A stretch of DNA of 64,000 nt from positions 269,576,001-269,640,000 of the forward strand of contig OZ024743.1 in assembly GCA_964016885.1 (NCBI GenBank), written 5' to 3'. Positions 60,364 to 62,430 of this stretch are shown here, piece after piece; the stretch's first letter is position 1; each line of letters opens with the position of its first letter. Under the pieces are notes generated by a model. That model saw nothing but the letters and a program-made list of their open reading frames with translations. It had not been told where the DNA came from and did no database searches. The translations under genes and the position numbers were made by a program. The DNA comes from Eledone cirrhosa (lineage: Eukaryota).

Positions 60364-61168
60364 GTATATATATATATATATATATATATATATATATATA
60401 TATATATATATATATATATATATATATATATGTATATATATATAATATATATATATAATATATATATATTTTATATATATATATATATATATATATATAT
60501 ACATATATATATATATATATATATATATATATATATATATATATATATATATATATATATATATATATATATACTTATATGGAGAGAGAGACATGGGGCG
60601 TTCTCCCTATTCGTGGCAATATTTCCAACCATTTTAGTACTTCATGTGGAGTTTATTTCGATATTCAATTGCAACAGAATATCTTTGTAGAAAGATGATA
60701 TACACCTATATACCAATTAGTATTCAATTGACAGAGTTTGATATAGTATAATATTAAACAATGAAAGATTAAGAAAACATGGCTAGGTTGCCAATTAAAC
60801 TGTTATTTTACGATGTACAGACTTAATTATTCTGTAGTCAATCCTCAGACGCCGTGGTGTTGATGGTATGGAGCTACCAACGATTAGACTGCACATCAAT
60901 ACTTTGGTCTTTGAAAGGATCGCAAATTACACACATAAATGTATGTGTATATATACATACATACGTACATACGTACATACATACATACATACATACATAC
61001 ATAATTTGTGAAATTTGTGAAATTATAAAACCAGAAGAATATACATACATACATATATATATATATATATATATATATATATATATATATATATATATAT
61101 ATATATATATATATGAAAGACGTAAAATAAGAACATTTAAAAAATTAAACTTACTTACTAAAATTTTC

Positions 61169-61250
61169 ACTCCAACTAATTAGTTTCTGTAAGGGAATAA
61201 ATATAGTTACGCAACGCAACTATAGAAAAGTCCTTACGTCATCAGGGAGT
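61169..61250 (-). ncRNA. Type I HHR (R2, inverted copy)
   Basis: Reverse complement of 61390-61471 with minor changes. Confidence 0.75.
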
Positions 61251-61389
61251 CTATTCTCAGCTAGGTTCCCAGGCAATGCGTGGACACTAGGAACCCATAT
61301 AAAAATAATAATTCGGTGGATGGAAAAAAGCTTATTTTTATATGGGTTCCTAGTGTCCGCGCATTGCCTGGGAACCTAGCTGAGAATAG

Positions 61390-61471
61390 ACTCCCTGATG
61401 ACGTAAGGACTTCTCTATAGTTGCGTTGCGTAACTATATTTATTCCCTTACAGAAACTAATTAGTTGGAGT
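61390..61471 (+). ncRNA. Type I HHR (R2)
   Basis: actcc-CTGATGA-c-gtaagg...tatagttgcg/cgtaactata...ccttac-a-GAAAC-taatta-GTT-ggagt. Confidence 0.8.
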
Positions 61472-61921
61472 GAAAATTTTAGTAAGTAAGTTAATTTTTT
61501 AAATTTTCTTATCTTACGTCTTTCATATAATTGTTCTGCATCCCCCTGCATAAAACCACAAAGGTACTAAGACATAACATATATATTTGCTAGCATGGGT
61601 ATACATCTGTATACACATGTTGGTAGATATACTAATTCTCGATATTTATCTCCAAATTATTTGTTGAGCAAAACTTTCGAAATTTACTGCTATGGTTCAT
61701 GGTAGTAGTTAGGCTCTTGTCATAATACCACCCCACTCCTCACTGATTAACCTCAGTGTCATGTGATTGATTCTTTAGAATTTGCCACTGACCAAGTAGG
61801 CAGTGAATTTTTTCAGTGCCCAGGAATCTAGTCCCCGGTAGCTTTTTTCCATCCACGGAATTATTATTTTTATATAGGTTCATAGTGTCCGCGCATTGCC
61901 TGGGAACCTAGCTGAGAATAG

Positions 61922-62003
61922 ACTCCCTGATGACGTAAGGACTTCTCTATAGTAGCGTTGCGTAACTATAGTTATTCCCTTACAGAAACTAATTAGTTGG
62001 ATT
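61922..62003 (+). ncRNA. Type I HHR (R2, second direct copy)
   Basis: Same motif with one helix I mismatch (ggatt). Confidence 0.75.
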
Positions 62004-62430
62004 GAAAATTATAGTCAGTTAATTTTTAAAATTTTCTTATTTTACGTCTTTCATATAATTGTTCTGCATCCCCCTGCATAGAACCACAAAGGTACTAAGA
62101 CATAACATATATATTTGCTAGCATGGGTATACATCTGTATACATATGTTGGTAGATATACTAATTCTCTCTCTCTCTCTCTCTCTCTCTCTCTCTCTCTC
62201 TCTCTCTCTCTCTCTCTCTCTCTCTCTCTCTCTCTATATATATATATATATATATATATATATATATATATATATATATATATATATATATATATATTAT
62301 ATATATTATATTATATTATATATATATATATATATATACATATACATATACATATACATATATATATATATATATATATATATATATATATATATATATA
62401 TATATATATATATATATATATATATATATA

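Follow-up and report, generated by a model that had tools for sequence, protein, structure and literature searches.

An abundant repeat family of Eledone cirrhosa, probably a hammerhead retrozyme inserted into (TA)n microsatellites by a Penelope-like enzyme

The stretch of Eledone cirrhosa DNA analysed here (64,000 nt of contig OZ024743.1, hereafter the window) contains a compact group of direct and inverted repeats with three hammerhead ribozyme motifs, raising the questions of what kind of element this is and how its layout arose. The insertion (61110-62168) consists of two back-to-back arms within a TA microsatellite, which overlap by 1 nt, at 61332. Positions in the repeat unit are numbered from q1, the first base 3′ of the predicted hammerhead cut. 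The main arm (61332..62168, plus strand) comprises q398-532, one whole unit, and q1-174, and the inverted arm (61110..61332, minus strand) comprises q374-532 followed by q1-63. The complete unit of 532 nt, from cut site to cut site, is located at 61467..61998 (plus strand) and represents the predicted monomer or circle. The target microsatellite, (TA)n, is found on the left at 61054..61111, and (TC)n followed by (TA)n on the right at 62169..62432, both as read from the sequence; no target-site duplication is readable within this right-flank microsatellite.

The two direct repeats described in an earlier note on this DNA were recovered at 61332-61640 and 61864-62168 (94% identity), as was the inverted 5′ repeat with a third hammerhead (61110-61332, core at 61245 on the minus strand). 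Rather than LTRs, the repeats represent one unit in partial tandem. The stretch between them, regarded earlier as a unique spacer (61641..61863, plus strand), is the middle of the unit: it is present once in the main arm, its last 24 nt reappear in the inverted arm, and it belongs to the repeated 532-nt unit in 30 of the 30 loci fetched. A unique flank duplicated locally is thus excluded by the genome-wide family, the search for which included the spacer. That the element lacks an ORF was confirmed, the longest stop-free frames of the circularised unit being 44 aa (plus strand) and 72 aa (minus strand), and 53 and 93 aa in a related subfamily (B, see below). The unit does not contain the ORF for reverse transcriptase and GIY-YIG endonuclease that characterizes an autonomous Penelope-like element.

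All three hammerheads have the core CTGATGA. Hammerhead 1 (61390..61471, plus strand, type I) has its core at 61395 and a GUU site with a predicted cut after 61466, and hammerhead 2 (61922..62003, plus strand, core at 61927) has a predicted cut after 61998, so that the two GTT sites are 532 nt apart, as calculated previously. Hammerhead 3 (61169..61250, minus strand, core at 61245) would be cut between 61174 and 61173. Hammerhead 1 folds with a helix I of 5 bp, a helix II of 6 bp, and a palindromic helix III of 3 bp, and its 37-nt loop 2 contains an inner hairpin. The description of the helix III 12-mer as a perfect palindrome and of an extra hairpin (10 bp) on helix II also proved accurate. 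In each hammerhead of the insertion, an extra C precedes helix II and an extra A follows it. Hammerhead 2 has acquired private changes, i.e. a G-to-T substitution that cuts helix I to three pairs and two broken pairs in the inner hairpin. The isolated folds have z values of −3.15, −1.39, and −3.77, and together with the thousands of family candidates described below, these values exceed the chance expectation. A comparison with Rfam yielded no match at the gathering score and 20 weak matches up to E=5, none of them a hammerhead; the best were microRNA models on the inverted repeat. The Rfam hammerhead models probably miss the window copies because of the long loop 2 and the extra bases.

Further elements of related appearance were seen in the window. 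A different hammerhead repeat with tandem and inverted copies at 58000-59550 and 53835 (cores at +53835 and −58940) also carries one additional base to either side of helix II. A short-type hammerhead core is present twice (45244 and 63300), and a core at 62948 is part of an element with inverted ends between TA runs that recurs in three fetched loci (L040, L062, and L117). Inverted-repeat elements are located beside TA runs at 59776-60014 and, as judged by eye, at 62436-62612.

Release of a 532-nt monomer, as predicted in the earlier note, appears plausible for the family and doubtful for the window copy. The active fold of the monomer is predicted to be 2.5 kcal/mol above an inactive fold, and helix I to be almost unformed in a long transcript. 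The helix III palindrome can pair as a predicted 10-bp duplex (−9.0 kcal/mol), which would favour action as a dimer. The pair probability of helix II in hammerhead 1 decreases from 0.71 to 0.23 once the inverted arm is included in the transcript, and those of helices I and II in hammerhead 3 are 0.00 in minus-strand read-through RNA, in which hammerhead 3 would be masked by pairing with the antisense of copy 1; these values are equilibrium predictions, from which co-transcriptional folding could differ. The proposal of self-cleavage on both strands was not supported, because a hammerhead core is found on just one polarity of the unit, whose minus strand has no core, unlike in a viroid-like RNA with ribozymes on both polarities, and because the hammerhead of the inverted arm is predicted to be masked in minus-strand read-through. 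The presence of hammerheads on both strands thus marks how the insertion arose, and does not indicate a two-polarity replicon. RNA reads that join 61998 to 61467 would be weak evidence of an excised monomer, as this junction already exists in the tandem DNA. The private changes make hammerhead 2, and thereby the window copy, a poor source, and the lower helix II pairing of hammerhead 1 in the presence of the inverted arm may contribute. The insertion is an ageing, decaying copy of an abundant protein-free 532-nt repeat, and it appears to be an outcome of the cycle instead of a source for it.

The genome searched is microsatellite-rich and comprises 3.0 Gb. A search with the main arm retrieved 3,270 candidates, of which 39 were scored, giving 84 matches; the long ones are 91-96% identical, spacer included. 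Four related subfamilies were found, all in (TA)n and with units of 524-557 nt; B, C, and D were reached through diverged neighbours. Subfamily A, to which the window copy belongs, has a unit of 532 nt. The units of B (about 524 nt), C (557 nt), and D (553 nt) are 80%, 77%, and 79% identical to A, respectively; identities among B, C, and D are 72-91%, and D is 91% identical to C. The first-look candidates numbered 3,270, 2,557, 480, and 1,890 (A to D), counts that overlap between the searches and are lower bounds. The repeat is also present at high depth in three runs, which consist of contigs of one sample. The family is dispersed, present in high copy number, and recently mobile. Most of the listed matches of subfamily C are 99-100% identical, with arrays on many contigs, and by this measure of sequence identity C is the youngest subfamily, and very young. 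A fifth unit variant was noticed at one locus (L307:2854-3441; 82-85% identical to A, C, and D). In addition, D matches occur at multiples of about 551 nt over about 17 kb (G000:C12:24515886-24532777; L242, L252), which suggests a satellite-like array of about 30 units.

For an analysis of ribozyme conservation, we compared 341 hammerhead copies: 92 came from A loci, including two C/D-type neighbours, while B contributed 39, C 156, and D 54. An intact core was found in 75 of 92, 36 of 39, 156 of 156, and 49 of 54 copies, respectively. Helix II keeps its six pairs, with pair 3 being U-A, A-U, or C-G and pair 6 being G-C or U-A, depending on the subfamily; the pairs were counted by anchors, since the machine alignment placed a gap wrongly in B. 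Position 17 is U, or A in nine copies, and never G (0 of 341). The extra C and extra A around helix II are kept in 332 of the 341 copies. The compensatory changes in helix II and the intact core fit selection on the hammerhead fold, with the four subfamilies representing few independent covariation events.

The ends of the arms are fixed. They are found either at q60-63 (“short”) or at about q173-183 (“long”), and at equivalent positions in C and D; in the window, the inverted arm has the short end and the main arm the long end. The ends enter (TA)n via a short TATA match, in subfamily A often after a (TC)n slip, and (TA)n flanks in the fetched loci show that the insertions target this microsatellite. 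End pairing was examined in 45 A, 28 B, 20 C (counted by hand), and 24 D loci. For 70 of the 75 two-arm loci, one arm has the long end and the other the short end (A 27 of 28, B 11 of 14, C 14 of 15, and D 18 of 18), and these 70 loci have the layout of Penelope-mobilised insertions, i.e. a partial tandem, an adjacent inverted 5′ copy, and a tail at one end. In one D insertion, a short piece between the two arms (L224:1000-1059) resembles, by eye, a repeat at 63840-63960 of the window.

The short and long sites are about 111 nt apart and bracket a conserved 22-bp hairpin. Its first copy in the window is located between the two end sites (61582..61631, plus strand) and its second copy just before the long end (62110..62159, plus strand). 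The hairpin is 96% paired over nine distinct rows of the alignment, with double changes at 3 of the 22 pairs; its z value in the window is −6.8, and the shuffle control is inflated by the relatedness of the rows. We infer that it is a candidate binding or start signal for a reverse transcriptase.

Protein searches showed that the genome is full of Penelope-like ORFs. To find a partner, as suggested in the earlier note, we combined a GIY-YIG family search with 19 long-ORF regions and with three protein searches; these gave 140 loci from a few families, so that the diverse Penelope families were undersampled. No partner was found among these 140 loci, i.e. none has a terminal repeat that shares the unit's sequence. 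The unit is present in six of them, as neighbouring insertions and one chimera. Pfam RVT_1 and GIY-YIG were matched on two of seven Penelope-like proteins. In the sampled loci of all subfamilies, the unit does not run into an ORF, except for one microhomology chimera with an unrelated element. In this chimera (L109/L113, G000:C5:133.89 Mb), a Penelope-like ORF of a family with 719-aa proteins is joined to a subfamily-B arm via 4 nt of microhomology, possibly by a template switch of the helper enzyme. The chimera was considered as an autonomous element and rejected, as 29 other loci of the 719-aa family have their own, unrelated 3′ region. The 719-aa family (L114-L142) is young and has intact ORFs. 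Its protein has no Pfam family match, and we consider it Penelope-like because of motifs identified by visual inspection. In the hammerhead of the family, a 7-bp helix II is flanked by extra bases on either side and loop 2 comprises 22 nt; one end of the family enters (TA)n 38 nt after the cut. The single chimera hints at this family as the clade of the helper. In the window itself, broken frames resembling Penelope-like RT/GIY-YIG were observed at 40499-42663 (minus strand), which belong to an older, abundant family, and at 47291-48254 (plus strand).

The earlier description as a non-autonomous retrozyme of the Penelope type is upheld by the copy number, the head-to-tail units, the lack of an ORF, the conserved hammerhead, the (TA)n targets, the inverted 5′ arm, and the fixed ends, whereas its dependence on a Penelope enzyme is putative.

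The arrays of subfamily C are informative about the template of copying. We analysed 20 C loci, picked as long arrays, with 124 whole units and up to 11 hammerheads per arm. A locus-private change is present in 13 of 13 units and both arms of L203, in six of six units and both arms of L213, and in six of six units of one arm in L208; four C loci share another fixed change. L216 has a two-unit period that is in phase across both arms, L203 has one variant out of phase, and L206 has one variant at unit 3 in each of its two arms, in line with a multimeric template. Substitutions per unit pair average 0.36 within an arm, 0.44 between arms, and 1.20 between loci. A new mutation that is fixed throughout so young an array implies a bottleneck of one unit, which a circle provides, and the private variants point to rolling-circle reverse transcription, although gene conversion could homogenise arrays. 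In subfamily A, the divergence is 2.73% for direct unit pairs, 2.75% for inverted pairs of the same round, and 2.58% for inverted pairs of other rounds, compared to 5.2% between loci, indicating that the repeats were alike at insertion. Two repeats of the same A locus have non-majority bases in common about five times as often as repeats of different loci, direct and inverted alike, suggesting that both DNA ends were primed on the same RNA. The cut junction is free of gaps in 92 of 93 passages in A and in 44 of 45 in B, which counts against sloppy template jumps. Two candidate lines of evidence were dropped. The variants of the A array L112 (6.8 units) are missing from its end units, as fits later local amplification, and the predicted stability of the circle differs between A (z of −6.3) and B (−0.5, both against mononucleotide shuffles).

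Taking these results together, we consider it probable that the family is a non-LTR retrozyme pasted into (TA)n by a Penelope-like reverse transcriptase/endonuclease with priming from two ends, probably on a circular RNA of unit length. The family, the unit, the fixed ends, the arm pairing, the target, and the conserved folds are observed, and the copying steps are deduced from them. Read-through RNA of a tandem copy would be cut by the hammerheads, perhaps as a dimer via the palindromic helix III, and the monomers would be ligated into a circle. A Penelope protein would bind near the conserved hairpin and cut (TA)n. Priming would take place at about q174-179 from one DNA end and at about q60-63 from the other, in both cases where a short TATA match is present. 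Both cDNAs would run round the unit, often halting in or near the ribozyme, and their joining by microhomology would generate the tandem plus inverted arms. For the specific version of this process, in which one circular ribozyme RNA is copied from both ends of a (TA)n cut for up to about 11 rounds, with the two fixed starts bracketing the hairpin, we see the chances as evenly balanced.

Alternatively, tandem source arrays might yield a multimeric transcript that is linear and partly cleaved and serves as the template, so that a circle would not be needed, and we regard this as unlikely. The positions at which arms stop bear on this reading, with a pile-up of 5′ ends at the second cut in A and B. 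In subfamily B, 13 of the 18 arms that reach the second cut stop within about 20 nt of it, compared to 1.2 expected; the width was chosen after inspection of the B data and fixed before new A loci were tested. In these, 5 of 13 arms stop there (1.0 expected, p=0.002). An initial scripted test with A loci (4 of 14, p=0.03) used approximate distances and included arms of other subfamilies as well as the window's own, and was replaced by this count by unit position. The pile-up in A and B is compatible with a linear template, as are the clean cut junctions, the two L102 arms that both begin exactly at q1, and the evidence for templates longer than one unit in L206 and L216. However, subfamily D has no excess of stops at the second cut (2 of 16, p=0.31), a linear source cannot yield arms longer than itself, and it offers no way for a new mutation to become fixed in each of the 13 units of so young an array. 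Of the arms that continue past the cut, many stop 50-95 nt beyond it, inside the hammerhead fold. Both a cut RNA end and a structural pause fit the stops near the ribozyme. Circular and linear routes may also run together.

These stops within the fold would likewise fit if the hammerhead were a non-cutting passenger, i.e. a protein-binding or pause structure, with multimers arising by precise re-entry of the template. The nucleotides added on either side of helix II, the GUU site, and the competing inactive fold are in line with this possibility, and the PAc hammerhead is dispensable in that mutants still insert in vitro (Frangieh et al. 2024, PMC11167929). Nevertheless, we judge it improbable, because the catalytic core and a position 17 other than G are kept across subfamilies that are just 72-80% alike. 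Furthermore, cleavage is reported for a hammerhead of the axolotl in which a U-U mismatch lies at the base of helix II; it is weak in the monomer and improves in the dimer (PMC7229834), and the extra C and A found here resemble this variant when read as a mismatch at that base. We consider it highly improbable that the units are terminal repeats of an autonomous Penelope element in truncated form, or a satellite formed by unequal crossing-over. Truncated Penelope insertions do have this layout, L112 and the long D array at C12 look locally amplified, and the sampling of partners took in a few of many Penelope families. Yet the units join head to tail without an ORF, no sampled locus runs into one save the chimera with an unrelated element, and crossing-over does not make dispersed two-arm insertions with fixed ends.

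The retrozyme reading places the family among the animal non-LTR retrozymes described by Cervera and de la Pena 2020 (PMC7229834) and by Li, Clavereau and Pollet 2026 (10.64898/2026.07.22.740005), to which it is a new addition as judged from the main text of these sources; the supplements of the latter preprint may list similar families. It shares with them non-coding head-to-tail units with a type I hammerhead each, a low GC content, a high copy number, and coexistence with Penelope-like elements. The unit of 532 nt is within the 51-972 bp range given in the preprint, but larger than the circles of 170-400 nt in coral, mussel, and axolotl (PMC7229834). RNA circles are described for those animals, whereas the present family is described from genomic DNA. 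The structured 37-nt loop 2 and the extra bases on both sides of helix II also differ, as do the paired inverted arms with two fixed ends, when compared with the available descriptions. The preprint already argues that retrozymes of the non-LTR type are Penelope derivatives lacking autonomy, and reports that one of nine Xenopus retrozyme dimers was cleaved in vitro (10.64898/2026.07.22.740005).

The hammerhead resembles the Penelope-type hammerheads of Cervera and de la Pena 2014 (PMC4209133) in the long helix II, the short helix I, the extra base between positions 9 and 10.1, and the palindromic helix III suited to dimers. In contrast to these, as far as the available text describes them, it has a second conserved extra base, an A in front of GAAA (present together with the C in 332 of the 341 copies), a loop 2 that is long and structured, and a helix III of 3 bp. 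The insertions have partial tandems, an adjacent inverted 5′-truncated copy, a tail at one end only, and microsatellite targets in common with Penelope-like insertions (Craig et al. 2021, PMC8557442). Unlike endonuclease-bearing Penelope-like elements, the retrozyme has no ORF, and its tail of about 111-122 nt is about three times longer than their reported 30-40 nt. Non-autonomous Chlamys elements such as MRC1 are also of the Penelope type with multicopy head-to-tail insertions, but most of them do not have canonical hammerheads in the account available (PMC8557442). PAc also initiates at two internal sites, which are close to a stem-loop located downstream of the hammerhead, and it cleaves and extends both strands; it starts without homology, whereas both start sites here share a short TATA homology with the target (PMC11167929).

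Copying from a circle was proposed earlier, as a hypothesis (PMC4209133, PMC7229834), and the origin of tandem and inverted Penelope insertions was called undefined (PMC8557442, in the text available). In the literature searched, which covered few subscription papers, we found no genome-based evidence that a retrozyme circle is primed from two ends. While the window copy is unremarkable, the value of the family is the genomic evidence that it provides on how Penelope enzymes copy. Its subfamily C is near-identical and very young, its two start sites are exact, and its hairpin is a binding candidate, which opens the question to testing in vitro. If the proposed mechanism is true, a hammerhead whose helix II is flanked by extra bases on either side, and whose loop 2 is long and structured, would be active, and two-ended copying of a circle would explain the tandems, the inverted arms, and the tails of Penelope insertions as one reaction.
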